From: Bispira polyomma
Lineage: Eukaryota
Length of the DNA: 64,000 nt
Direction of reading: 5' to 3'
Assembly (NCBI GenBank): GCA_965649765.1
Contig: OZ287751.1
Span: forward strand, 50,840,001-50,904,000
Positions 8,051-61,924 of this stretch are shown piece by piece. The number at the start of each line of letters is the position of its first letter. Within the stretch, counting starts at the first letter, position 1. The position numbers were made by a program, and so were the translations under genes. The notes beneath the pieces were generated by a model. That model did no database searches. It saw nothing but the letters and a program-made list of their open reading frames with translations, and was not told the DNA's origin.

Positions 8051-9096
8051 ATTTGTCAACAAAACTGATGTATTATATGCAATGTGACACAGTGAATGAC
8101 AATGGAGAAATATACAATTGCATCACTGTTACTACCAGTGTCACTTGATATTTGATATGATCACACAAATTCACATAAGGGGTGGAGAAGACTGTATTAT
8201 TTCTAGACACATCACATAGTGACAGCTGTCTTTATTCAATTTTCTGTCACATACACAATTGTAATTTGAGCTTGAATTGGCGTTTTCAATAATAATTTCC
8301 TTACAAATAAGGTTGAACTAAAACAAAACAATTCAATGGCATTACCTTCCATAGAGAGATTGATAATTGACGAATATATGAACATACATAGTATATGCAT
8401 GGTCTTTGAATTTTGATAAATATCTTTATCTAATCTGTTCCAGCACTGGAGACACTTCATGTTCCTCTACATGAAAAAGAAAAAATTAATTAAATAATAT
8501 ATATATATACTTTTTTTTTTTTTTTGAAAAATACATTTAAATTTTCAACATGCGTAATTTTAGCCAAAAGATAATTAAAGGTCCAAATAAAATATGCTAA
8601 TAAACATATTCCCTCCCTTCTCTCCTGACCAGCTAAATGATGTTAATGATGATGTTAATATTTTTTACTTTTATAGCAGTGCAGGAGCCTTGACAAGCTC
8701 CTACTATAAGTACTGCACACTAAGTGTAATTGTGTTAAAGACATTTATTATTCGAAATTATTTTATTGAGTAACATTATAAAGCAAAATTTAGAAATTAT
8801 TTTAAATTTAAATAACTAGGTACAATAAGCTTTTTCAGCAGGTAGTTTTCGGTTAATTGTAACATGGCACGAGAAAAGTGATGTCATATTGTTTTATCTG
8901 GAATGATACTGATTGTTCCACAGATTATAATGAGCGTATAGATTTTTTAACACTGCTCTCTTTTGCACCAGAACAAACATCTGCTGACATTTTTGGTGAC
9001 TACTTTTGTGTTGAAAATGAACACAGCAGAGTAAAATTACCTGACAATAAGGAACATATATCACTGACACATTAGTTTTCAGAGCTTGTCATAAGA

Positions 9097-10117
9097 ATGG
9101 AAGAAATACATGTAAAAATAAGTGAAAGGTGCCGCAATATCTCAATTCCTGTATTTGTGCTGGTCATTTGCTTTGCACTATCTTCGTGGATAGATGTTAG
9201 TGGTGTCTTTGTAGAACTTCCACTGTTTGTGAACAGGCTTCCTGAGGGTTGGAGTCTACCATCATACATCAGTCTACTTGTACAGATAACTAGTATAATT
9301 CCTTACCTATATGTCTTGGTTGTCACATGTTATCCTGTAAAGATCAAGGAATGGCCTATTGTGATAATCATTATTTCTATAGGAGCTGTGGGATGTCTAG
9401 CACTGGTATTTCTGTGGGATAAGACTGCATTTATTGCAGGTCAGCATCGCAGTGTTGGCTTGTTCTCCTTGACATGCATATTATCTTTGGTAGATGTTAC
9501 GAGCAATGTGGTATATTTTCCGTATATGGCACAGTTTAAACCTGCATACCTAATGGCCTTCTTTATTGGAGATGGACTTGATGGGCTTATCCCTGCTGTT
9601 GTTGGACTCATTCAGGGAGCAGACGAGGCTCCTACCTGTTTAAATACGTCTTTCATCAAGATGAATGAAACCAGTGGGCAGAATGTGACATTATGGAAGT
9701 CTGAAACCATGTATAGTCCACCTGTCTTTTCCATTGAGATTTTTCTATTATTTCTGTATTTTATGGTGGTCCTGTCAGGTGTTTCCTTTTTAATTCTACA
9801 CTTTGCACCATTCTGTAAGAAACAACGCTGTAATTGTGAAAGGAACAAAACAGAAGTCATTGGACTAAATATTACTAAAGTACAGAACAGCTTTGATTGT
9901 AATGGTCCAAAATTAGAAACAGACTATATCTGGTCAGATCATAATCAACAAAATAATTCCGATGATACCATACAACTAAAGAGAAGACGTGATAGTGGAA
10001 GTTCAAACAATATCCCAAGGAGAAAGTTCGTACTTCTGATCATATTGAATGGATTTTACAATGGCTGTGTATACACTCTGCTTCCATCTATTAGTTCATA
10101 TTCAAGTATTCCATATG
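9097..10117 (+). CDS. SLC52A3: SLC52 riboflavin-transporter-family protein, coding exon 1 of 3 (475 aa in total)
   Basis: Family motifs SSWIDVSGVFVELPL..LPEGWSLPSY, LVDVTSNV, FFIGDGLDGLIP, PVFSIEIF and LPSISSYSSIPYG. Acceptor ttttcAG at 9081-82 upstream of the ATG; donor GTATGT at 10118 (phase 1). The symbol indicates family likeness, not proven orthology. Confidence 0.9.
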
Positions 10118-10634
10118 GTATGTAACACTTTATGTTTATTCTGTCATAATGCCAATATCATCCCAATATTTGTCAGTGCATAAGCAACTATACTGGAACA
10201 GGGACAAAGTAAATAATGACTTTAGTAGGCTTTTACTTCAATTTCAACAGCTTATGTCACATAACGTGGCCCAATAATTATATATGAAAGACAAAAACTT
10301 GCTAGCAATTTAATATTTGATATATTGTGCCTGGTTTTTATTATAATAAATGCAATTCCACTTTTGTAAGCTAAATGGACATACAAACAAAGTAAGTTAA
10401 CACTAAAAACATTATTCATAATAGTTAAAGCTATTGTATAATACTGTATTGACGGGAATGTTGGCTGGTATAAAATGTACAATATTTAACATATTTGTTT
10501 AAATTAATTTTCACTATTGGCCAACAAGATTAAAAAAAAACTAGACTTCAAGTTAAAATTAGCTTCTAGTAAAAATTTCCAGACACATTATCAAAACATT
10601 ATTTGGTATGCAGTATCATTGCACGTATTTTCAG

Positions 10635-20249: not shown

Positions 20250-23200
20250 TTGTAATTGTAATTGTAATTAGCGCACCAGCACAAAAGACAGTTATCCAAT
20301 TTCCAAAATCAAGGGACAGAAAAAGGGTCAGCAACATAGAGCGCGCCGGGGGATGATGGAGACTAAGGTTGATATGCTTTAGTGTACAAGTGGGTTTTAA
20401 GCTTCTTTCTAAAACAGGCTAGTGAGGGGGAAGCACGAATCACATCAGGAAGACCATTCCAAACAATGGGAGCATCAAAAGCAAAGCTGTGACCAAACTG
20501 TTTTACCGACCTTTGAGTAGATGGGTGGAACTTCGGAACAACAAGGAAATTACTACCACTCTGACTACGTCTGATATTGTAGGAACTACTGTAAGTGGAA
20601 AGATATGGGGCAAAATACTTTGGAAACCCAGTGTGGAGAAACTTATAAACAAGTGTAGCTGTCTTAAACACTGAACGCTGTCCAACAGGGAGCCAATGCA
20701 ATTTCTTAAGAACAGGAGTTATACTAGTGTATCGACTGGTGTTTGACACAATTCTAGCTGCACTATTTTGAATGCATTGTAATTTGCGTAAATTAAACTT
20801 TGAGAGACTCCTGAAAAGTGAATTGCAGTAATCCAGTCTACTACTGACAAAAGCATTGGCCACAAGTATAGAAGCATCATAAGTGAGAAACCGTCTGACA
20901 CGTCTAAAGTCACGGAGTTGCATAAAACAGCTTTTGCAGACACTCTGAACGTGTTTAGAGAAAGAAAAGTCAGAGTCAAACCATACACCCAGGTTCTTGA
21001 CAGAATCAGCTGGACTGAAAGGGCTACCCAGGATGTCAACTGGAAACAATGCTTTTAACTTATCCCTCAGTTGTTTTGAGCCAAAGATTATGAACTCAGT
21101 CTTGTCGGGATTAAGTTTGAGTTTACCAGTTGACATCCACTCTTTCACATCATCAAGACCCCTGTTCAACTGTTCAAAGGCAGTAGATGTGTTTTTATGG
21201 GATAGGTGCACATAAATTTGGGTATCATCTGCATAAAAATGAAACTTTATTCCTGTGTATTTACCAATAACCAATCTGAGAGGAGCAGTGTATAATGAGA
21301 ACAACAGAGGGCCCAAAACAGAACCTTGAGGGACACCAAACAATAGTTTACAAAGATCGGACAGAGTAGAGCCAATTTTTATCGACTGATAACGATCAGT
21401 TAAGTAGGAAGTGAACCATTTAAGAACAGAGCCCGTAACTCCAAACCAAGTCTGAAGACAACTGAGAAGCGTGGAATGATCAATGGTGTCAAAGGCAGCA
21501 GAGAGGTCGAGCAATACCAGGGCAGTAGGTTCCCCTCTTGACAAAGATAAGTGAACTTCATTTTTTATAGACAGAAGAGCTGTCTCAGTCGAATAACCAG
21601 TTTTACACGCAGACTGGTATGGGTTGTCCAAGTCGTGGACAAAGATGTGATCTAACAGTTGCCTAGCAACCACGTGTTCAACCAGTTTTGATATGAAACT
21701 AAGACCAGATACAGGGCGATAATTCTTCAGGTCATCAACTGGAAGAGAAGCCGTCTTAATAAGAGGAGTAACCACAGCTGTTTTAAAACCATCAGGTACA
21801 TGTCCCTCCGTAAGTGAGCAGTTTACAAGTTTTGTAATGGATGGTAGTAATATATCACTACATTCTTTAATAAGAGATGTTGGCCATGGATCCAACATGC
21901 AGGATTATGTAGGCGAGTTACTTATTATTTTACTAACATCATCTTCAGAGACTCTGGCAAAGGCAGTAATTTCTGGGGGATCAGAAAGAGGATGAACATC
22001 AATTTTAGTTCCAGAGACAATAAAAGTATCCCTAATTCTCTTAATTTTGTCCGAAAAAAAGGAAGTAAACTTATCAGCTAGTGATTTATCAGAATCATGG
22101 GATGGGAGTGCCACATTGGTATCCATATTAAGGGTCTTGCGCAGTTCGTGCCACAGCTTCCTGGAGTTGTGACTGTTGTCAGAGATAAGTTTACTGTAAT
22201 ACACCGACTTATCCTCGTTAACAAGTACATTGCAGCGAGCAATCTGGCGACGTAGTCGACTTCTATTTAATGGATTCTTGGCCCTTCGCCAAGTTCTTTC
22301 ATATTGGCGCCTGAGAGATTTAGCCTGTCGGTAAGAATCAGAGAGCCAATGCACAGATTCTTTCTTTGACATTCTGGATACAAGTGGTGCATGCTTATCT
22401 AGTACATCACCCAAGTCGTGTATGTATTGTTCATAAAGTTTGGCTACAAAATTGGCAGGTGACTTAATAAAGGAAGTACTCTCAAGATCTGTACGGAGGT
22501 CAGACATGTTAATACGGTGGTACCTCCTATAATGCACTGTATTAGGAATATGAGCCACCTGTGGGGGAGAGGCAATTGAGCATTTGACTAATGCATGATC
22601 CAATATGAAATCACAGACTTTGACATCCACAATAGTATCCTGATCACAAGGAGATAAAATAAGGTCCAGAATGTGACCATGCAGATGGGTAGGTTGTCTA
22701 ACTAACTGTTTTAAATCGCATGAATCAAGAAAGGTCATAAATTTATGACCGTCACCAACTGGTGCATCAACATGGATGTTAAAGTCACCACAGATATGAT
22801 ATGAACTGTTAATGGAAGACAAGAAACCAACAAAAGACATAAATTCTTCTAAAAAATTACAGATACATGATCCTGGGGGGCGATAGACGCAGGCAAGCAA
22901 CAGTGAGCGGCCATGAAGCCCAATTGACACCACCATATTTTCAAAGGACTGATAGACAGGAGAATCTACTTTATGTGGTTTGTAGGAGGATCTGATGAAG
23001 AAACCAACACCGCCACCAATCCGCGAGGGACGAGGCGTTTGAGGAAACACAAAATCTGGAGGAGTAACAGACCGTAGGAAGCTATCCGTATCAGATAGAC
23101 GGACATGGGTCTCAGTAACACAAAGGAAGTCGAGGTCGTGCGATGTCACAATATCTGCAAGGAGTGGACCCTCGTTCCTCACGGATCTAGCATTTAACAC

Positions 23201-23620
23201 CCCGAGCATGACAGGACCAGGGTTAAGGGACACATCGCAGGCGAGTAAAAGTAACAAGACAAGACCTCTTCCATTAATGGTGGTAGGAAATTAATGGTGG
23301 TAGGAAAGAACATGTGTATGAAAAATTTTTTGCCACTTTAGCCAATGAGGTTGTTGATGTATGAGCAACACTGTGATGCAACAACTCATACCTATGAGCC
23401 ATAGCCACAGCAAAAAGTGCTGAAAAAAGGACAACCCGAAGCAGAAACATGCCTAGTGAGGTTGTAGAAAAAAAGAAGCCCTTAACCTGAACTCAACAGT
23501 GGGGAGCCTCAAAAAGCTTGTCCCTACAACTTACCGCACAATTCTTCGTCCCGTGGGCGACTCACGGGCACCCTAGCACCCCACACTATAGCCTGACCTT
23601 AAGCTAAGTACAACCACACC
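20250..23620 (-). mobile_element. Near full-length single-ORF L2-clade LINE inserted in the Harbinger element
   Basis: APE and RT ORF, short 3' UTR, (AATTAC)n tail at 20250-20270, GC-richer 5' UTR to ~23620 (5' boundary approximate). Confidence 0.92.
20363..23450 (-). pseudogene. L2 ORF: leader peptide, 2A-like motif, apurinic endonuclease and reverse transcriptase
   Basis: APE motifs NARS, VTETH, GGGVG, VYRPP, GDFNIH and LDLI. RT motifs NYRPVS, LDLSAAFDTIDH, GVPQGSVLGP and YADDTQ. ORFs 23257-21905 and 21898-20363 are in the same frame, separated by one TAA. The leader is frameshifted (17-bp duplication at 23274-23307). Confidence 0.92.
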
Positions 23621-28691: not shown

Positions 28692-29872
28692 AAATCATTC
28701 TGCACCTATTGGGTTGTCGTAGTGCCCCTTCAGTGAGGCGTGTTGAACCTTGGCCTCTCTGTTTGCCGTGTTCCCCAGAAGTATCTCCTCCATATCTTGC
28801 AATGCTGCCCCATTTCTCTAATCCTCTGGTAGCAGATTGTGCTGTGCGTCTTCTCGGTCCAACAATTCTAGGTTTTGGCCATTTGGATACCTCACTCTGC
28901 AAATGTTGTGCAAGATGCAGCAGACTGTGGTGATAACAGTGGCTACTTCTGGAACATGGCACAACTTCCCACTGAGGCATCTGAACCTATTGAGGAGGAG
29001 CCCAAAAGCATTTTCAACAACTCTCCTTGCGCGGGACATGGGCTGGTCAACACTGGCCAAAGGAGTAGCTGCCTGAAGTGGGAGTAGGTCATCCTCTAAG
29101 GTTTGCTTCAAGTGAGAGACATTCCAGATCTGGGCATCAAAGCAGCAGCCACTTGCACCAACATCGAGGTAGATGAACTTGTAGTCAGCATCCACCTCAG
29201 CCAAAAGTATGATTGAAGTGAACCACTTGTAGTTGAAGAACTGCGATCCACTGTGAGGGGCTTCCATAAGGCAACGTGTTTCCCATCTATGGCACCAATA
29301 CAATAGGAAAAGTTCCATCTTTTCTCGAAAAGTTCTGCAATATCAGTCCAGCCCTTGGATGTATCTGGAGCATATTTAACTTCATCGAGGTATTCCGCCT
29401 CTATGGCACGACAAACTTTGAATAATCACAGACACTGTGTTGTGTGCTACACAAAAACCATACGCTAGAGATCTGCAGTCCGAACCAGTAGCTAGGTACC
29501 TCAGGGTGATGGCCATTATTAAACGTGGTTCTAGGGGAGCCCTAAAATTGATCGTTTTCCTTCGCAGTCTTAGTTGCAAGTGTTGGACCAGTTCTCAGAA
29601 GAGATAAATCCTGGTGAAATTCCTATAACTAGCAGGGTCCTCAGCCTCAAGCTTCTGCAACAGGTGCTCGTAGAATCCAAAGAGTGGTCTCCTAAGTATC
29701 TAGGGCCTGGTCCACACATAACTCTGCCTTCTCTTTCTGACCATACCTACCTGTTCTTCCATACCTGTTCCAAATATTGAGTGGCATTAATAATATTCTG
29801 CATCACTTGTACTTGAACCATCATAGCTTGTTTCAGGACCTGGAATTGCTCCAATACAAAGTTAATGGCCAT
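28692..29872 (-). pseudogene. Harbinger (HARBI1-like) DDE transposase, frameshifted
   Basis: ITLRYLATG..SLAYGF.VAHNTVS, CIGAIDGKH, SGSQFFNYK..SIILLA.VDADYKF..DVG..G and SRARRVVENAFGLL..RFR..CCILHN. The GD-x-AF segment with the second Asp is deleted. TATA-like TATATATAG on the minus strand at ~29952. Confidence 0.9.
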
Positions 29873-31334: not shown

Positions 31335-33652
31335 GCTTCCTTTCTTTTATGTCTTCATTGTCAAATATTATCCCACTAAGATCCAAGAGTGGCCTTTTGT
31401 CACACTTATTATTTCTATAGGAGCCGTGGGTTTTTGAATTTGGATATTTAACGTCCACTCTAGTACCTTTTAGTAGGTTATATTTGGACGGGTAGTTGGA
31501 AACGCTGGAGAAAAACTGCATACAGTCGGTCAAGGTTCTGCAGAGAAACCAGCGGCCCACAGTAAGGAACTACCACCTTTCCCACATAGGCATCGACGGG
31601 ATTCGAACTCACGCTGCCCAGAGGTGAGAGACCAGTGATTGTGAAGCGCAATGCTTGCTAACCACTAGGCCACCACGGCCCCATAGGAGCCGTGGGATGT
31701 CTAGCACTGGTATTTCTGTGAGACAAGACTGCATTTATTGCAGGTCATCATGGCAGCATTGGCTTGCTGTCTTTGAGTTTTCTCCTTTCTGTGATGGATG
31801 TTATGAGTACAGTAATATACATTGCATACATGGCTCAGTTTAAACCTGCATACCTTACGGCCTACTTTATTGAAGATGGGCTTGATAGCATTATCCCTTC
31901 TTTGGTCGGCCTCATTCAGGTAGCTGACAAGGCTCCTACCTGTGTAAAGACGTCTTACATCAAGATGAATATGACCAGTGGGCAGAATGTGACATTATGA
32001 AAGTCTGAAGCCTTGTATAGCCCGCCTGTCTTTTCCATTGAGATTTTTCTATTATTTCTGTTTTGCATGGCGGTCCTGTCAGGTGTTTGCTTCTTAATAC
32101 TACACTTTGCAAAATTCATCAAGAAAGAACACTATAATTATAACAGAAGCCAAATAGAAATAAATATTATTAAAATACAGAACAGTACTGATTGCAACAA
32201 TACAGAAATAGAAACAGATGAAATGGTAGTCAACAAAACAAATACAAGGATACCACAGAATTAAAGAAGAGACACTACAGTGAAAACTTAAACAATATAC
32301 CAAGTGGAAAGTTTGTATTTCTGGTCATCTTGAATGCAATTTACAGTGGTTATGTTTACACTGTGCACCCATCTATTAGTCCCTATTCAGCAATTCCATA
32401 TGGTATGTTTGGTATTTGCTGAAAACAGCAACAGTTTTATGTTTATTTTGTCAACGTTGAAATGAAGAACTTTAGCTATTGTACATTTTCTTCAACATTG
32501 CAAATGTAATACAACTTTTACAAACCAAAATACCATCACACACATGTCTGAATTATTAGTAAAGGCCTTTTATTCATGTATAATGTATTATTTTTTAGTA
32601 AATTATAGATATTTTACTGTATCCAGAAGGTAAAGAAAATGCAAAACACTATGTAAATGGGAACATTTGCAAAAATAAACTTTTCAAATTTTACATTATT
32701 TAAGAAACTTATTGGAAGTAATTTTCATTGTTGGTCAACTTTACATACAGAAGATTAAATAAATATTAAAAAACACACTGTAAAATTATTATGTCTATTC
32801 AATCTCATTTGCTAAATTAGCTCAAATAACTTGGCAGTTAAAATGTCCACCTCACAGTATTAAAAATACTCAGAGTTGCACTTATTTCCAGGTAACACAG
32901 AATACAGCCTGTTGGTAAAGCTTTCCAGTGGTGTACTAACTTTTGCCCCTGTCCTTAACCTCTTCTACTTAGTCACCTCTGTACCTGGACATCTCCTCCT
33001 AATTGTTATATCTAGTATGTTACTGGCCTACCAGTTGCTTATGGCTTCTTACAGCCCATTGTCACCATTTTAAGGAACACCACTTGGTACATTTTTAGTG
33101 GTATGTTGCTTGTGCTTGATACATACAGTGATATTACATTACATTTTTGCCATGTTAAAGTCATATATAGTAGAATTGCAACAGTTACAACATTTATAAT
33201 ATAAATATAGTAAATAACTTTTCACTAAATTAGTTATTTGTTAAACTTGTATGAGATCCTAACTTGTAGATAAAATATAGTAAAAGATCTAAATTAATTC
33301 ATTTTAAAAAGAACTAATGTTTTACTACCAATTTAACTCCTAAAAATTTATATATTCCCAAAAGTGGGAGACTGAAATACCCATTCTTTTTCACAAACAT
33401 ATTTTTGAACAGATTTTCATTCGTTTAAGCTGCACATATTTGATCTTGTTTCAGGTGAGTATTGGTGCCCTTTGCTCATTTATCAGTAAATATGCCAGTG
33501 TAAATATAGCCATGTTGATGCAGAACTCCAGTGGTCGGATGGGACTGGTGTGGTATGGAACATCCCTCCAGGCTGGGTGTCTGTTATCTGCCATTGTGAT
33601 TTTTAGTCTGATTAATGTGGCAGAGGTATTCTCCAGTGAACAAGTGTGCTAA
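31335..33652 (+). pseudogene. SLC52-family tandem paralogue, pseudogene (exons ~31335-32402, 32892-33100, 33455-33652)
   Basis: Colinear with 9097-12813, with identical exon 2/3 lengths (209, 198). First ~65 codons not found; SINE insertion in exon 1; nonsense codons at 31719, 31998 and 33071, plus frameshifts. Confidence 0.9.
31431..31682 (-). mobile_element. Full-length tRNA-derived SINE (252 bp)
   Basis: Starts GGGGCCGTGGTGGCCTAGTGG (A box), has GTTCGAATCC (B box) and an A-rich end. Perfect 14-bp TSD ATAGGAGCCGTGGG at 31417-30 and 31683-96. Confidence 0.93.
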
Positions 33653-34975: not shown

Positions 34976-37900
34976 TTCCCCGGAAGTAACCCAAATCTTG
35001 TAGAACGAGAGAAACCCTCAGTCTTCATTTGGAAAATTAGAATTCTAGAAACAAAGTGGGGCTAGCTGGGTGGGATCCGGTTTAGTGAGGATAAGGTTAC
35101 TTCTGGGGATGCGCAGTGAGGATTGTCAAGGAAATTTAAAATAAAATCACAAGAATAGTCTTAAGTTAACTAAATGAAATAGCATTATTGAGGATAAGGT
35201 AAGTATTTATTATCCAAAAAGATAAATTACATTAAAATTTGTACAGTTTATTGCGATAAATACATTTATCCTCAATAACACTAGAATCAAACCTTAAAGG
35301 TGGAGGGTTGTTTATGGAACCCAAGTATTTAGAGGAAATTTGTTGAAAGCCAGAGCGTTAGTCCTGAATATAAGGCAAGTCCTTATAGTACTACTTTAGA
35401 TTAGACAAACTATAAGTAGATGAAACCACAATATACCTCAACCTTTGGTTTGAAACATGGTCCCATAAATGTAGTGTCACTGTACAGAAGTTCCTATTCA
35501 CAAATCTACAGAAGTGGTCCTATTCAGATATGTATAAATGTCAGCCCCATGATGTCACTGAAGGTCAGGATGTCTCCGTCGTAAGTAGTGGCATCACATG
35601 GCTGAGTCCAACATTCTTCTTACTCTGATATGTACAAGTAGGAGGCTGGAAGGAAGACAAAGAAAGATTGTATCATCAGCATACACTAAAAATAATGCAA
35701 AACAAACAAGATTAATAACAATCTTACACTATTAAGACTTGACTACATGGTGTGCAGCCACCACAGAACCCAGGGTAAAATCCGAATCCTCTTTAGCCTG
35801 CCAAGCCACATCTTTCGTGCAAAAATGGGTGAATGTATGGTGTGAGCACGAGTAACAAGAACCCAAGATCTGTTCTAAAGATACCCGCCTTTGAAAGCTA
35901 GAGATACTGCCATAGATCTTAAATCGTGTGCCTTAACCTGAGTGAGAGATGTCACTTTCTCATCTGCCAACTTGTAACACATTAAAACAGTTTGTTTGAT
36001 CCAAGAAGAATTGGTAGCTTTCTTGATATTAGAATCAAAACTTTCCCTAAAGGATATAAACAAGAGCTTCTTGGCCTTCCTAAATCCCTTAGTTCTACTG
36101 ACATATAGCCTCAAAGACCTTACAGGACACAAAAACTAATCCTCCTTAAGATGATCATCCAGGAATGATGCAAGAGCTGGAATAATCACAGGCTTGATAG
36201 AATCAGAACCTACAGAGGCTAACTGATTCTTAGCCATTAACACAGATGAAGGAGCCACAGTAACTTCAGCCTAACCAGGTTTATGTTTTAGAAAGGAAAA
36301 GGTCCAAGCGTCAATCTCACCCCTTCTCTTACCAGAAGCCAATGCCATCAGGAAAACTGTCTTACAAGTCAATAACTTAAGTGAGGTTCAGATGGCTCAG
36401 ATGGAGGCTTAGTTAAGGCTAACAACACCACCGACAAATCATAAGTTAGTATGCCCCTATCTTTCACTGGTCTATCCCTAAGGAAACTTGCTAAGGCCTA
36501 TTCAGATCCAGACGTTTTGAAATCTCAATGCTTAAGGAACCCATGTGATCAGCAATAGGGGTACAGTACCCAGCAACAGTTGCAAGTTTCAAATCTCGTT
36601 GCAAAAAACGAAACAAGAATAAAAGAAAATCTGCTATTTGAGGGATAGAAGGTTTGGAGAGGTTTACCTTCTTTGCACTTGCCCATTGTTCAAATAAGGA
36701 CCAATTTAATTCATAGACCCGTCTTGAGGACGGTCTTTGAGGTGCCTTAATTTGGTCTTCCGCTGACTGTGATAATTTGAGTGTTGTGTCAGATCCGAGT
36801 TCAGTAAAGAAACATGAATAGTCAAAAATTAAAGATTCTGTAGGTATTTCAGGCTGAAAGGTTGTTTCAACATCTGAGGCCACTGAGGTATCAGGAATGG
36901 TGGTCTTACTCATAGGTTTACAAGATCCCAAAACCAGGTCATCCCTGGCCACCCTGGGGCTAGAACCATCATACATCAATGATACCTTAACATTTTTTGT
37001 ACTAGTTTGGGTATCAGCACCACTGGACAGAAGGCATAACTGTCCAGACCCTCCCAAGAGATATTTAATGCATCTATGGCTAGTGCTTGGACATCTGGGA
37101 TTGGGGACACATACAGGTGCAACTTGTGGTTTTGACTTGTGGCAAACAGATCTAATTGGGGGCGATAAAGCTTTTGACAAAGTAGACTGAACATCTGTGG
37201 GTGCAGTGACCACTCTGTGTGTATGACATTGTCTCTCCTTGAGAGACTGTTGGCTAGGACATTCAGACAACCTGCTATATGTCAGACTCTAACCCTGATG
37301 CTGCGAGGGTTGCAAAAATCAAATATCCTCCAAACCAGAAGACACATTTTTAGGGAATGTGTTCCGCCTTGTTTGTTGAGATAGGCAACTACAGATACGT
37401 TGTCGGTGGCTATCAAAACCTGTTTGCCTTGAATATGTTTTGCAAACGATTTTAAGGCCAGAAACACAGCTTTTAGCTCATACACATAGATATGCAAGTC
37501 TCTTTTTGTGTCTGCCCAGACGCCCCTTTGAACCATATCTCCCAAATGTGCTCCCCAACCTGTGCTGGAAGCATCTGTGAATAGTAGGGTGCTGTGCTCT
37601 AGAAGATGCAATTTTTCGCCTACCATTACATTTTCAGGATCTGCCCGCCAAAGCAGCTGATCTTTTAACCTGTGTGACACAGGAATCAGTATCTCTAGCG
37701 ACTAAAGAACTCGCCAATGGGTTCTTAGATAGCACTGGAAAGGCCTCATGTGTAGTCTCTCAAAGGGAACTATCTTCTCTACACAGCCCATAACCCCTAT
37801 CAAGAACATTAACTTCCTGGGAGTGAAGACCTAAGCTTTCTGAACCTCTTGTATTTGAATTTGGATATTTAACGTCCACTCTAGTACCTGTTTAGGTTAT

Positions 37901-40636
37901 ATTGGGACGGGTAGTTGGAAACGCTGGAGGAAACACTGCATACAGTTGATCAAGGTTCTGCACTGAAACCAGCGGCCCACAGTAAGGAACTACCATCTTT
38001 CCCACATAGACAACTGAACCTCTTGTAACAAACCCTTAAGTATTTTCCACTTCTTTGGAGTTGGAAACACTATCCCACTGAGTAAGTTGATGCGATACCC
38101 AAGAAAATTGATCAGCTGAGTTGGCTGAAGTTCACCCAACCCATAGACTCTACTAACTGGATCATAGAACAGATTTGAACTTGACTCTTCTCAGACGATG
38201 GGGAGCAAATCAGCCAATCATCTATGTACTGATGAATCCGAATTCCCCGAGATTGCAGAATTAATTTTGTTTCCCTGACAATTCAAGTAACTCTAGAGGG
38301 ATGTCGCTATGCCAAAAAGAAGGGCCCAAAACTGATAACACTGGTTCTCGACATTTAAACGCAAAAATCATTGAGAATCCGGATAATTGGGATATGGAAG
38401 TAAGCATCAGATCTATCGAAGCTACCCACTCCCCTTGTCTCAATGAATTTTGTATAACCTCTGCTGTTTCCATTTTTAATGTTGGGAAATACAAATTCTG
38501 GTTTAGAAATCTATCACTGGGCGCCATTTGCTGTTTGGTTTTAGTACAAGGAATAAATGACTGTAGAAACCTCGATCTGTGCTGAACTCTATTGAACCAA
38601 TAGCCCCTTTTTGCAGCATTTGCTGAACACACGTTTCTAACGCCATTTACTTTTCTTTGTTGACATAACCGCTGAGAATTGTTGGAAACCGAGACAACGG
38701 GACTCTCGTTTGTAGGCGTATTCGGTACCCGCATTTTAGAGTCAGTACAACTAGAGGATGGCGCCTTAACTTCTCCCACACCTGCCAAAATCCTTGCAAG
38801 CGGCCCCCATGTCTTCTGTCGTTGTTACTTCCTTCTACCCCTTCCACCTTGGCTGGCCTGGGAAGACTGGAAGCTGGCAGACTTCGTATTGAAGCTTTGC
38901 CAACGAAAAGAAGACTGCCTCTGGCCCGGTGGATTCTGATGTCGAGTTGCAGAAGGCTGGTTAAACTGCTTAAAATTAGACTTAGTCTCATATTTCTGTC
39001 TATTAGGGCTGCTTCGAGACCTGTCCTTAGCCAGTGTTTTTTCCACTTAATTAAGAGTACTGAAAAAACCCTTTTCTAAATAAATCCGTTTGATGGTGGT
39101 GGTCACCAATCTGCAGATTGCTTGCCTTGAGAATGCTATCTCTCCTAAACAATTGTAAGTTGCAGGCCATAGCAATGCTTGTGTCTACAATGGTTTCCAA
39201 AACCTTGTCTATAGACCCAAGGCAAGTCTGTGCAATCTGTAGGTTGTTTGAAGCTCCCTCTACTTCAGACTTTTGGCTGTCAGATACACTCTCTCCCAAA
39301 CCTGACAAGAAAGACTCTACCTCTGACATAGACTTGTCTATTGCTCTAATGAATTGACAAACAAATGACAACAATAGACATTCTCTCTGAATAGTGTTTC
39401 CATAGACAAAATCTGCTTCCCTGGGATGTAATAGTTGGTAGGAAGATTAACCGACTTCGACAACGACTTGAAAGCCTCTTGACACTTAGGGGCAGTAACA
39501 GCAAACGTATTCCCTGAGGAATTGTAAAACCTCATTTTTGGCCTCTTATAGGTAAAAAATTCGCCTTTGTTGAGAGGGGTGGATGCTAGGACTTCTGGAG
39601 AGTTCACATCTGGACGACCACCAGCAACTGCTTCATTAGTGACTCCATCTCTGAAGAACTTCTTCAACTACAGCAAGTGACATTGGCAGCAGTGAAGATT
39701 TCTTTAGCCTGGTTGGGCCAATAATTCTTGCTGGTTGGGCTACATCCTCTAACACTGTCTCAAGCCCAAGCACATGCCTAATCGTCGCTATCATCTGTCT
39801 GTAGGGAGGATCTTCTTCGTCTACTACCTCCTCAACTTTATACACGTCCATCTTTGCAGGGGAAAGCGAACGAGCCCTCTTCCTAGACGAACCCTCAGAA
39901 CTGGAGCCAGAGACAACATCGCCTTCTTTGGGTGTGTGTACCCCTGCAACCTGACTTCTCTCCACACCAGCAAGGCAGCTACTTATTTAGGAGAGCTGTG
40001 CAAAAATCTGCTGTAAAGGATCCGAAGACGAGCCAGGGAGAACAGCGAAAGGACTGTCCAGACGACTGACTCCCATCTTCTGCAAGTAGGTGATCCTCCA
40101 GCAACCTTTCTTTCTTCTTTATCTTAGTAAGAGCAAGTTCCAATCTTTTCCTGTCCTCTGAAGAGAGAGCTAGGCAAATAAAACAGTCTTCCGGAGATTC
40201 TGCCACACCTACATCGTCACCTATATTCGCAGCACGACATGGCAAGCAGTACTTGTAAGTATCAAAATCATAAGCTGGGTGACCACATTCTGGGGCTTAC
40301 GCTGCTTCTGTGGAGTTTTTCCTTGAATAACTTGCTTTTTTGCCATCACTACTCACAAAGTCCTCCAAAAAATTTAGTTAAAAAAATAACGGCCGAAAAA
40401 ACAAAAGCATCGAGGTGCTCGCGACTGCGACCAAATGAAGACTAAGGGTTTCTCTCGTTCTACGAGATTTGGGTTACTTCTGGCCATGCGCAGTGAGGAT
40501 TGTAGAGGAAATTTAAAATAAAATCACAAGAATAGTCTTTGAAAAAAAGACTAAAGGATTTTTTGGTCGGCATTGAGGCAAACTAAATGAAATAGTGTTA
40601 GTGGGGATAAGGTACAACGGTATTTATCGCAATAAA
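34976..40636 (-). mobile_element. DIRS1-type retrotransposon (gag, RT, RNase H, Dam-like methyltransferase, tyrosine recombinase), degenerate
   Basis: Gag-like ORF with an N-terminal Cys cluster. RT: KMET..GEWVASIDL, HQYIDDWLI. RNase H: FTDASSTGWGAH, ELKAV, TDNVSVVAYLNKQGG. MT: DLFAT..YAFCP. YR: CPVRSL, AHDLRS. 50-bp ITR pair 34983-35032 / 40431-40480 (48/50) and an ICR at ~35190-35283. Confidence 0.92.
37854..38013 (-). mobile_element. 5'-truncated SINE of the same family, inserted in the DIRS RT
   Basis: Matches the 3' part of 31431-31682. 14-bp TSD CTGAACCTCTTGTA at 37840-53 and 38014-27. Confidence 0.9.
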
Positions 40637-58164: not shown

Positions 58165-58359
58165 CTGTCTCTGGTTTGGCTGTGTAATAAAGGCTCTATT
58201 AGCTATAGACTGTGTGGGCATCTGTTCAGATGCTGAGCCAGCTCTCTGTCTCATACTGCCTAGTTCTGTCAGGGAGTTAGAGCGCAGTAATGGTCTGTGG
58301 GAAGGCTCTATATTCAATAATGGCGTCGGCTGAGCTAGTCTTTCTATAGGTTCATAGTC
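58165..58359 (-). CDS. Unidentified gene, internal exon (195 nt)
   Basis: Acceptor ttttttaacAG, encodes DYEPIERLAQP..LLRSNSLTEL..QPNQRQ, donor GTGCGT; phase 0-0. Confidence 0.8.
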
Positions 58360-59808
58360 CTGTTAAAAAAGGAGCAATACGTTTAGTATCTGAATTATAC
58401 TGCAGCATGGAATCTCAGTGTGACCTTAGTTAGAAAACCTTCACAGTCAACTAAATTATATGTCTTACGATTAAATCTTTTAAATTACATGTTTGATGTC
58501 AGTGTTGAAATTTCTAAATGATATATTTGAAGTCAGTATTGAAATATCTGAATGATATGTTTGAAGTTAGTATTTCAATTTTTTTTTTTAATCAACATTA
58601 AGAATCGCAACTGAAACCAAATTGATATTGACACAATGGCCAGAGAATAACAACTTTAATGAAGGTGATGTGGCATTCTTTTCATACATAAATAACCCTA
58701 TATGTAACCATTTATTATTGAAGAGTTTCCAGCACTGAATTCGATTGTAGTGAGAATTGTACTTCATATACACTCCAGTAAGGAATCATGAGGAAACATC
58801 AGATTTTAGCTTGAGATGCTTGGTTAATACCACCACTGAGATGGTTAAAATTATATCATATACCAAAATAATAAATACCAGACCTATTGGGGATTCCTAA
58901 GGTAACAATAAATTTCATAGAAGAAAATGAACCTGTTTATCTTACACTTCAGAATTATGTACCTACCTGAAATTCTATAAAAATTCCCCAAAATTGCCTA
59001 TGATAAAACTATAATAGGATCAATATTTATATTAAACAATTCAAATATAATCCAAATTCTTTATCTGCCCAGATTGACCAATTTTAAACGGTCACTTATA
59101 AGAGCCTAAATATAAAGGGTAAGGGGGCACTAGGGTAAGGGTGCCAGGTAAGAGGGCCTCATCACTCAAATTTATTAATCCCAGTAGGGTAAGGGTTGGT
59201 AAAGCCCAAATGTAGTACAGTTCCTGACACCTGCATCGCACTGTACTAATTGCCTTATTATCCAAACCTAACCAATGGACAATACTGAACTCCATATTTT
59301 TAGCAGAGTGTTGTTTCTGACTAAAATGCCTTGATACTGGGGTATTCCCTTTATAGGATTGGGTGAGGCTCCAGATTTATTGGATGCTCCCTCTAGTAGG
59401 CTAAGAGTCTCATTACTCAATCTGTTGTCAGGTATAAGTGTACCTGTCTATGGAGTATTGAAAGCTGAACTTCCTCCCACTTTGCACCCAATAAAAACAC
59501 ATTATAATGGGTTCACCATTTATTCATTTATTTATACATTTATTTCCCCTCATAGGTGAAATTATATATATATGCATAATGATTAATATAACAGTTTGAA
59601 CCACCCATTAGTTGACTTTTGGTTCTGAACATACTTGAAACCTTCCTGACCACTCACTTCAGTTAGAACAGGATCTATTGTATCTACAATGATTACCTTT
59701 GAGTCAGAGCCCACTTAGAGTTCTGCTCCGCCCAGTTGCTCCGCCGGATCAGGCGGAGTCAGGCGGAGTCCATTTTTCCACCTTAAGTTTTTAAAAGGTG
59801 AATTTTTT

Positions 59809-59875
59809 ACAGCCTCTGATGAGAACACCCACTGGAGTTCGAAATATATTTTACACCAATAATATATAAGGCAGT
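59809..59875 (+). ncRNA. Type I hammerhead ribozyme
   Basis: Stem I GCCT/AGGC; core CTGATGA (59816-22); stem II GAAC.CC/GG.GTTC; GAAA (59841-44); stem III TATATT/AATATA; cleavage triplet AUA (59866-68). Confidence 0.8.
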
Positions 59876-60742
59876 CAGTTAACTCCTGTCACCTACACCA
59901 GGTTCAAATAAATACTTATAAGAGCCCTTTAAAATACATGAATATAAAAAAAATCATGATTGTGTATTTCTCCTCTTAGTTTTACATGTCATGTAGAAGA
60001 GTGACCTACTTTTATGTCTTTTGATAAAATCCACACTTGTTTAAATATATCAAGTCATTTTTTGGAACACTGGTAGTATGGTATGTATATAAAATTCAAG
60101 TTATCATGAAATTGTGTAATATCAACAGTATTGTACCTTCGATTTCATTGTGAGGCCTTGACCTAGTTTAAAGAAATTTAGCAATTGTACAGCCTATAAG
60201 TCTTTGCTCTGTAACATCTAATTAGAATGTTTAATCACAGAGCAGATTTGCTGCATGATGGCTATTTTATGTGTCCTTATTAAATGACAATGTAGAGGCA
60301 TGACAAATATGTGGCCACACAGAAACTGAGCATTAATTTATGTGTACAAATAACTAAACCTCTGATTCACAGCATCATAATTACACCATGTCAGTGGGTT
60401 CTAAATCTAATTGGAGCAATTCTACTTTACCGGTAAGAGATTTTAACGAGATTTCGCTTACAACAAATAAATTTGTGATTATACAAGGCACATTTAGTGT
60501 AATTAAGGGGGACATGTCCCCCAAAAGACCCTCTGTATTGTTTGTAATAGTTTGCGACGAATCCTCAACATTTTAATTGTCATTTAATTTTAATTTACGA
60601 TGAAATGTACGACAAATCCTCGACATTTTAATTGTCATTCAATTTTAATTTATTATGAAATCTGTGTAAACAAAAAAGGTACCGGTGAAGTAGTAACTAT
60701 CCATTTAATTTGTGTTCATAAGTACATAATTGAACACAAACT

Positions 60743-61700
60743 TAGGCTTCTGTCTTGAAATCACCTTACCTAGACTTCTGTCTTAGTCTATCATTACATA
60801 GACTTCTCTCTTATCTCTGACCTTACCTAAGACTTCTGTCTTAGACTATTCTTACCTAGACTTCTGTCTCAGACAGATCCTACCTAGGCTTCTGTCTTAG
60901 TCTATACTTACCTAGACTTCTGTCTTAGTCTATACTTACCTAGACTTCTGTCTTGAAATAACCTTATTAAGACTTCTGTCTTAGACTGACCTTGCCTAGA
61001 CTTTTGTCTTTGTCTATCCTTACAAAGACTTCTGTCTTAGACTGACCTTACGCGTCTGTCTTACACTATCCTTACCTAGACGTCTGTCTTAGACTATCCT
61101 TACCTAGACATCTGTCTTAGACTATCCTTACAAAGACTTCTGTCTTTGGCTGACCTTACGCGTCTGTCTTAGACTATCCTTACCTAAACTTCTGTCTTAG
61201 ACTGACCTTACCTAGACGTCTGTCTTAGATTGACCTTACCTAGACTTCTGTCTTAGACTGACCTTACCAAGACTTCTGTCTTAGACTGACCTTTCTTAGA
61301 CTTCTGTCTTAGATTGACCTTACCTAGACGTCTGTCTTAGACTATCCTTACCTAGATGTCTGTCTTAGACTGACCTTACCTAGACTTCTGTCTTAGACTG
61401 ACCTTACCTAGACTTCTGTCTTGAAATAACCTTATTAAGACTTCTGTCTTAGACTGACCTTACCTAGACTTCTGTCTTAGACTGACCTTTCTTAGACTTC
61501 TGTCTTAGACTGACCTTACCTAGACGTCTGTCTTAGATTGACCTTACCTAGACTTCTGTCTTAGACTGACCTTACCAAGTCTTCTGTCTTAGACTGACCT
61601 TTCTTAAACTTCTGTATTAAACTATCCTTACCTAGACGTCTGTCTTAAAATAACCTTACTAAGACTTCTGTCTTAGACTGACCTTACACAGACTTCTGTT
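60743..61700. repeat. 28-bp minisatellite, ~34 copies
   Basis: Unit CTTACCTAGACTTCTGTCTTAGACTGAC. Confidence 0.95.
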
Positions 61701-61744: not shown

Positions 61745-61924
61745 CTGTGTTTCTACCTGTTCTCTGACTCTGGCGTCTCTTTGGTACACCAGCTGTTCCT
61801 CTAAGTACCTCTGTCTGTTTTGTAAATACACTCGTACCTTCAGCTCTTGCTTTTGCTCCAATCTTTTGTACTCACGATTTAGCAGGCCAATCGTTAGTAG
61901 AGCCCAGTGGTTTAGTGGCTTTGA
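61745..61924 (-). CDS. Unidentified gene, most upstream exon recognised (180 nt, coiled-coil-like)
   Basis: Acceptor ctgtttcAG, encodes SKPLNHWALLTIGLLNREYKRLEQKQELK..EQVETQ, donor GTAAGA; phase 0-0. The gene continues upstream. Confidence 0.8.

Follow-up and report, generated by a model that had tools for sequence, protein, structure and literature searches.

A 64,000-nt stretch of the Bispira polyomma genome (assembly GCA_965649765.1, contig OZ287751.1, positions 50,840,001 to 50,904,000; hereafter the window) carries a sequence with the features of a hammerhead ribozyme. What kind of element does this ribozyme belong to, how was it inserted, and is its RNA cut in the animal? We addressed these questions by comparing the locus with its genomic copies.

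The hammerhead motif and its intronic setting

A descriptor scan of the whole window returned this hammerhead as the only match, and the same descriptor yielded a motif in 1 of 200 dinucleotide shuffles. The CUGAUGA core (59816-59822) and the GAAA (59841-59844) are accompanied by a 4-bp stem I (59812-59815 paired with 59869-59872), a 4-bp stem II including G10.1-C11.1 (59823-59840) and a stem III (59845-59866) of 6 bp further to the 15.1-16.1 pair; U16.1 and A17 occupy 59867-59868, and the predicted cut falls at 59868/59869. The complete type I hammerhead of the original prediction, with all core nucleotides, three paired stems and a full 6-bp stem III, was thus located element by element, and the GC-rich nested hairpin that it placed upstream also folds. 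The features of the ribozyme region and the flanking gene are as follows.

59812..59872, plus strand: type I hammerhead ribozyme, core and stems; 607 genome pattern matches against 0 in the reversed control
59725..59769, plus strand: GC-rich nested hairpin, internal to the repeat unit, z -4.71
61838..61924, minus strand: probable host exon upstream of the intron, bounded by AG/GT and in frame with the next exon
58165..58359, minus strand: probable host exon downstream of the intron

Genomic copies could indeed be found. The 607 matches to the family-level pattern comprise several families with differing stem II and stem III sequences, and a 231-nt query gave at least 43 matches at 97-100% identity (40 of 486 candidates scored). 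G10.1-C11.1 was present in 29/29 distinct stem II strings, the C having been demanded by the filter. Between families, stem II positions 3-4 and stem III positions 5-7 showed two-sided pair changes as well as many mismatches (61 distinct strings). The Rfam hammerhead models gave no match at the gathering score or at E<=10. The minimum-energy structure of a 76-nt segment (59805-59880) is the hammerhead, with ordinary stability (z -0.55); for a 111-nt segment (59790-59900) a rival fold is favoured, in which stem I is broken and its 3' strand pairs downstream. Judged by its sequence, the motif at 59812-59872 is a real type I hammerhead, and self-cleavage is predicted.

Because splice-bounded minus-strand exons on either side (61924-61838 and 58359-58165) join in frame, we infer that the insertion is intronic and antisense to the host gene, in agreement with the original prediction. 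Searches gave no identity for the gene. The same intron contains a 28-bp minisatellite of 34 copies (60743-61699). At 60408-60707 there is a ~300-bp element that looks MITE-like, with 28-nt imperfect inverted ends, high depth and many loose ends in DNA runs. Elsewhere in the window, two mutually similar membrane-protein frames (9076-10125 and 31722-33652) presumably resemble SLC52 riboflavin transporters, and the frames at 20363-23290, 28818-29425 and 36491-39986 are, we assume, similar to a LINE, a Harbinger-type transposase and a DIRS-type element, respectively.

The insertion, its repeat unit and the coding parent

The ribozyme lies in an insertion of ~810 bp (59107-59913) made of two head-to-head arms. 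Unit positions below refer to the repeat unit, and the parent is a longer coding element; both are described after the list.

59094..59106: left target-site duplication, 13 bp, ACTTATAAGAGCC, identical to 59914-59926
59107..59482, minus strand: arm B, unit 1062-1433, 98% to other copies, terminating in fixed 3' site B (59112) and a few additional bases
59162..59343, minus strand: remnant of parent ORF2, C-terminal end of the GIY-YIG domain and stop codon; the frame 59092-59376 matches the ORF2 C-terminus
59344..59482, minus strand: remnant of parent ORF1 (5' part), reaching the ~3.0-kb internal deletion junction at 59344/59343
59479..59913, plus strand: arm A, unit 552 to ~985, 5'-truncated
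59905..59920, plus strand: fixed 3' site A, the putative reverse-transcription start, 52 nt past the predicted cut
59914..59926: right target-site duplication, 13 bp

Homology to other copies runs to 59479 on the plus strand and continues inverted from 59482 to ~59110, with the two arms overlapping by 4 nt at the inversion point (59479-59482). About 70 nt of template are missing between the arms, and site A shares a 6-nt microhomology with the target duplication. Contigs from three DNA runs (at most two samples of one study, possibly source data and not independent) showed high depth over the whole insert, and single-copy contigs bridged both junctions; no empty-site joint is listed among the DNA contigs of these runs.

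The original prediction had taken a ~208-bp block between two AGAGCCC heptamers (59706 and 59921) as the element, with the heptamers as a possible target-site duplication. This reading has a negligible chance of being correct: the first heptamer sits within the matched part of other copies and is therefore not a target duplication, homology reaches 59479 and, inverted, 59107, the 13-bp duplication encloses the larger insert, and depth in the DNA runs is high across all of it. What survives of the proposed small monomeric ribozyme retroelement is the retroelement insertion and its Penelope-like link; its size, its boundaries and the stand-alone monomer do not. A stand-alone retrozyme monomer is ruled out by the two Penelope ORF remnants, the 1,424-nt unit and the parent encoding reverse transcriptase (RT) and GIY-YIG. 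A DNA transposon whose terminal inverted repeats carry the ribozyme was likewise rejected, as truncation varies from arm to arm and the end sites differ.

Tandem copies define a repeat unit of 1,424 nt with no long ORF (reference L018:738-2161; unit position equals L018 position minus 729). Copies of this family are 91-100% alike, and the deletion junction of the unit has 54 exact genome matches. All of its segments are present at 91-93% in a parent tandem unit of 5,488 nt (5.49 kb; L037, L054/L055 and others), which runs in the order site B, a region of motifs that we take to be CRE-like, ORF3, hammerhead, site A, ORF1, ORF2 and site B. Compared with this parent, the short unit lacks ~1.46 kb including ORF3 and ~3.0 kb of ORF1-ORF2. 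From these alignments, it is an internal-deletion derivative of a Neptune-type Penelope-like element (PLE).

Frames of 802-839 aa in parent ORF2 match RVT_1 and GIY-YIG, and RT and C-terminal GIY-YIG stand in one ORF, as in endonuclease-containing PLEs. Partial tandems, inverted truncated copies, variable target duplications and a hammerhead in the repeat, all PLE characters, were also observed. Compared with motifs in the accessible part of PMC8557442, the ORF2 translation contains DKG, a CX5CxxC linker and CxxC inside GIY-YIG, which corresponds to the CX2-5CxxC linker before GIY-YIG and the two cysteines between GIY and YIG of Neptune. According to the same text, Nematis also has a reduced linker; the parent is thus assigned as Neptune-type by motifs common to Neptune and Nematis. 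The whole 802-aa ORF2 was found in 4 of 20 copies examined, all four from sister subfamilies, and in 0 of 10 copies of the closest parent subfamily. Because those 10 copies lack a whole ORF2, we can only infer the mobilising partner.

ORF1 of the parent encodes 261 aa and starts 74 nt after the predicted cut; its 98 relatives reach at most 288 aa. It showed no Pfam family and no Atlas match, and its predicted structure, mostly helical with a mean pLDDT of 67, had no PDB match at E<=0.001. ORF3 (~258 aa) contains two C2H2 fingers and was found too in two more distant families (L031, L032); it has one weak relative. The dN/dS values of 0.09-0.27 for ORF1, 0.08-0.14 for ORF2 and 0.11-0.40 for ORF3, from pairs with computable dS of which several are near saturation, suggest that all three ORFs are under purifying selection.

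Collectively, we put at roughly 0.8 the probability that this ribozyme belongs to the terminal repeat of a non-coding Neptune-type derivative of 1,424 nt, with the window insertion likely made by the RT-endonuclease of the parent in trans.

Several further features of these units were noted. A cluster of TGACGTCA-like motifs right after site B (L018:790-870), ~73% conserved in a distant family, is a candidate internal promoter upstream of ORF3. A 170-nt segment (L074:3512-3684, L083:4565-4734) is present in the parent and some derivative copies and absent from the main unit; splicing was rejected as the origin of this segment or of the internal deletions because they lack GT-AG ends. Three parent copies (L053, L054, L055) have a common (TA)n-containing 3' flank and therefore spread with this flank, not by independent insertion.

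Ends of the copies and a proposed insertion mechanism

We collected 167 arms bearing an anchor immediately downstream of the ribozyme (170 recovered of 171 listed, from 71/71 and the first 100 of 138 matches, minus 3 segmental duplicates). Among the matches listed, 108 of the 167 arms stop within 200 nt of the anchor, and 107 of these 108 stop at unit 986-1003, which defines site A. Site B lies at unit 1433, ~50 nt past the ORF2 stop, and the two sites are separated by 441 nt in the derivative and by ~3.4 kb in the parent. No ends fell at unit 1010-1160 among the 167 arms listed, as a PLE-type 30-40-bp tail between adjacent 3' ends would have produced. Folding predicts that each of the two sites sits in a loop with a long closing stem (z -2.5 and -2.4). 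When modules A and B were tested as duplicates, 0/1000 shuffles reached the score here, other AT-rich windows of the unit equalled it, and a second family gave 64/1000.

The 3' cut product would begin at unit 941. In a window chosen once the data of this first family had been seen (unit 940-953), 20 of the 167 listed arms start. The upstream 160 nt contain 33 starts, which makes the excess 5.6-fold (p 5.5e-8); the 20 arms represent 16 insertions, and arms of one insertion are not independent. Among the matches listed, such starts occur in 14/108 A-ended arms and in 6/59 arms running past A (p 0.013). Applied to two other families, sampled in listing order (54/96 and 53/190 anchor matches; 107 arms), the same window held 7 events against 18 among the matches listed (3.7-fold, p 0.0075); singly, the families gave 2 vs 6, which is not significant (p 0.16), and 5 vs 12. 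In seven insertions (L071, L084, L087, L111, L118, L191, L237), both arms begin within ~15 nt of the cut. About 88% of the 167 arms listed read through the cut site, and cutting is therefore partial or reversed; this read-through and the rival fold of the 111-nt segment count against cleavage. Run-off of RT at the end of cleaved RNA is the likely source of the pile-up of 5' ends, and the hammerhead RNA is likely cut in the animal.

Could the pile-up instead reflect RT stalling at the folded hammerhead, or a joining bias at the AT-rich stem III, with a ribozyme that rarely cuts in vivo? The scatter of ends over unit 940-951 rather than at a single base would fit this, as would the four ends at -6 to -8 in the second of the two other families and the Anolis element, for which PMC11167929 found no cut-site reads. 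However, the commonest end among the matches listed is the first base past the cut (6 at unit 941, 2 of them ambiguous), and 6 of 107 listed ends in the other families fall at 0 to +2. Furthermore, a far stabler structure, the upstream GC hairpin, has at most 6 ends per 14 nt among the 167 arms listed, the maximum for any upstream window of that size, against 20 at the cut, and the end position is common to families that differ in downstream sequence. We therefore regard stalling or joining bias as unlikely.

A second possibility is that the unit acts as a non-LTR retrozyme, whose hammerhead-cut monomers circularise and are copied by rolling into tandems, a model put forward in the accessible text of PMC4209133 and PMC7229834. 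Each unit does carry a single ribozyme, and the longest arm (2,074 nt) exceeds one unit. Yet no arm exceeds ~1.5 units among 58 loci, read-through of partial tandems explains the longer arms, and the excess at the cut points to linear 5' ends. We consider this explanation decidedly unlikely, and a circular template may serve as a minor route.

The pairing of ends follows a strict pattern. Among the 58 loci are 41 inverted two-arm insertions, of which 37 have A+B ends and the other 4 have A plus an irregular end; A-A or B-B pairs were found in 0/41. Loci had been chosen by ribozyme-side or B-side sequence, and therefore either symmetric class could have shown up. Target duplications are 13-18 bp in 35 of the 37 A+B insertions, the outliers being L106 (7 bp) and L011 (duplication not found), and those of inverted insertions are AT-rich. 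Target duplications were also found at 11 of 13 longer inverted copies, which belong to the parent, to a sister derivative and to two other families. In 23 of 31 simple insertions (6 complex ones excluded), the B arm extends past site A, and both arms therefore copied one template stretch. These data suggest that the RNA is likely copied from two fixed start points, one per target DNA strand.

Inverted copies may also arise by twin priming on a single RNA molecule, as in L1. Because its arms have no template overlap, the window copy, taken by itself, would fit this mechanism, with its ~70 nt lost and the 6-nt microhomology of its target duplication to site A. The repeated copying of the same stretch by both arms argues against it, as does site A, which is fixed rather than set by chance homology and also ends two single-arm copies with their own duplications (L025, L109). 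Twin priming thus appears very improbable.

Under the preferred reading of a Neptune-type derivative mobilised in trans, tandem copies would be transcribed, and the ORF2 protein of the parent would make staggered nicks, 13-18 bp apart, in the two strands of the target. From each nick, cDNA would be primed at an internal site, A for one strand and B for the other. These two cDNAs would usually come from separate RNA molecules or successive passes, since one stretch is often present in both arms. The two truncated cDNAs would then be joined head to head. Part of the RNA would be cut by the monomeric hammerhead, so that RT runs off the new 5' end, and most cDNAs would traverse a ribozyme that is uncut or has been re-joined. 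Cutting of the parent RNA would split the ORF3 message from the ORF1-ORF2 message.

A broader proposal is that this is a three-ORF Neptune-type lineage with its own C2H2 zinc-finger gene, whose monomer-active hammerhead cleaves in vivo and defines the 5' end of some templates, and whose insertions are asymmetric pairs: one strand is always primed at A and its partner at B, with kilobases of RNA between the two sites. We hold this tentatively, at a little under even odds. If it is true, the genomic copies would directly document a Penelope mechanism that uses two templates.

Relation to known Penelope-like elements and retrozymes

The following comparisons draw on the accessible parts of the cited papers. 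The Bispira parent resembles Neptune PLEs (PMC8557442; killifish Neptune, PMC12602865) in its RT followed by C-terminal GIY-YIG, cysteine linker and CCHH-type motif, and in partial tandems, inverted 5'-truncated copies and a terminal-repeat hammerhead. Killifish Neptune also has a separate ORF1, ~180 nt ahead of ORF2 (PMC12602865). Unlike Neptune PLEs, the parent has a third, C2H2 zinc-finger ORF within the repeat unit, the 3' ends are far apart rather than separated by a 30-40-bp tail, and the window copy is non-coding.

For Poseidon PAc of Anolis, internal initiation is described, together with nicking and extension of both strands, protein-assisted cleavage and a predicted dimer; RNA reads starting or ending at the cut were not found, and cleavage was dispensable in vitro (PMC11167929). 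PAc is similar in its internal start, which lies in a stem-loop downstream of the hammerhead and which the loops of sites A and B recall, in its two start sites and in its AT-rich targets. It differs in that the start sites are adjacent and the hammerhead overlaps the ORF start (PMC11167929); in the Bispira element, one site follows the ORF for the RT-endonuclease, and the cut shows an excess of genomic 5' ends.

Metazoan PLE hammerheads are also of type I, with a 4-bp helix I, G10.1-C11.1, many families per genome and head-to-head pairs 100-700 bp apart, but they are minimal, or their helix III is a tiny palindrome, and they cleave poorly as dimers (PMC4209133). With its 6-8 bp, helix III of the Bispira hammerhead resembles that of PLE variants from fungi and protists; for one of those, cleavage of the monomer was observed (PMC4209133).

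Animal non-LTR retrozymes share the non-coding character, one type I hammerhead per tandem unit, low GC, long target duplications and a proposed PLE origin (PMC7229834; bioRxiv 10.64898/2026.07.22.740005). Their units measure 170-400 nt (PMC7229834) or 51-972 nt (bioRxiv 10.64898/2026.07.22.740005), compared with 1,424 nt here; instead of short (~170-400 nt) tandem repeats, we found at most ~1.5 units per arm in the 58 loci, in dispersed truncated or inverted copies rather than arrays, and the ORF remnants tie the unit to one parent. Non-autonomous Chlamys elements (MRC1) are alike in their autonomous PLE partner, common terminal sequence and tandem inserts, and differ in belonging to another clade (N-terminal endonuclease), in green algae, with microsatellite targets (PMC8557442, PMC9977147).

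Hammerheads in PLE repeats, inverted truncated copies, a one-ended tail and non-autonomous PLEs are already in print (among PMC8557442, PMC4209133, PMC6431247, PMC3846280, PMC9977147, PMC12602865 and PMC7229834), as are a separate ORF1 in a Neptune element (PMC12602865) and a PLE origin of retrozymes (PMC7229834). In the literature, largely without subscription papers, we found no C2H2 accessory ORF in an endonuclease-containing PLE, and no widely separated paired start sites or cut-enriched 5' ends for PLEs. Novelty is judged here on that literature, and the family may already be catalogued in Repbase or Dfam. On the role of the hammerhead in PLEs and the origin of inverted ends, the copies provide a statistical cleavage footprint and the strict rule that A ends pair with B ends; because the 1.4-kb derivative is reduced to the cis-acting parts, both questions become testable with a short RNA. 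A non-coding hammerhead repeat is, moreover, linked base by base to a coding parent.

Sister families have their own short units without a long ORF (L035, L259, L036, L050), with a ribozyme or anchor spacing of 1,706 in L035 and 1,742 in L259; non-coding derivatives therefore seem to have arisen several times. Additionally, L034:2300-9700 is an array of units of ~800 bp, in each of which a related hammerhead precedes an ORF1 start, apparently a retrozyme-like tandem from a sister PLE family.
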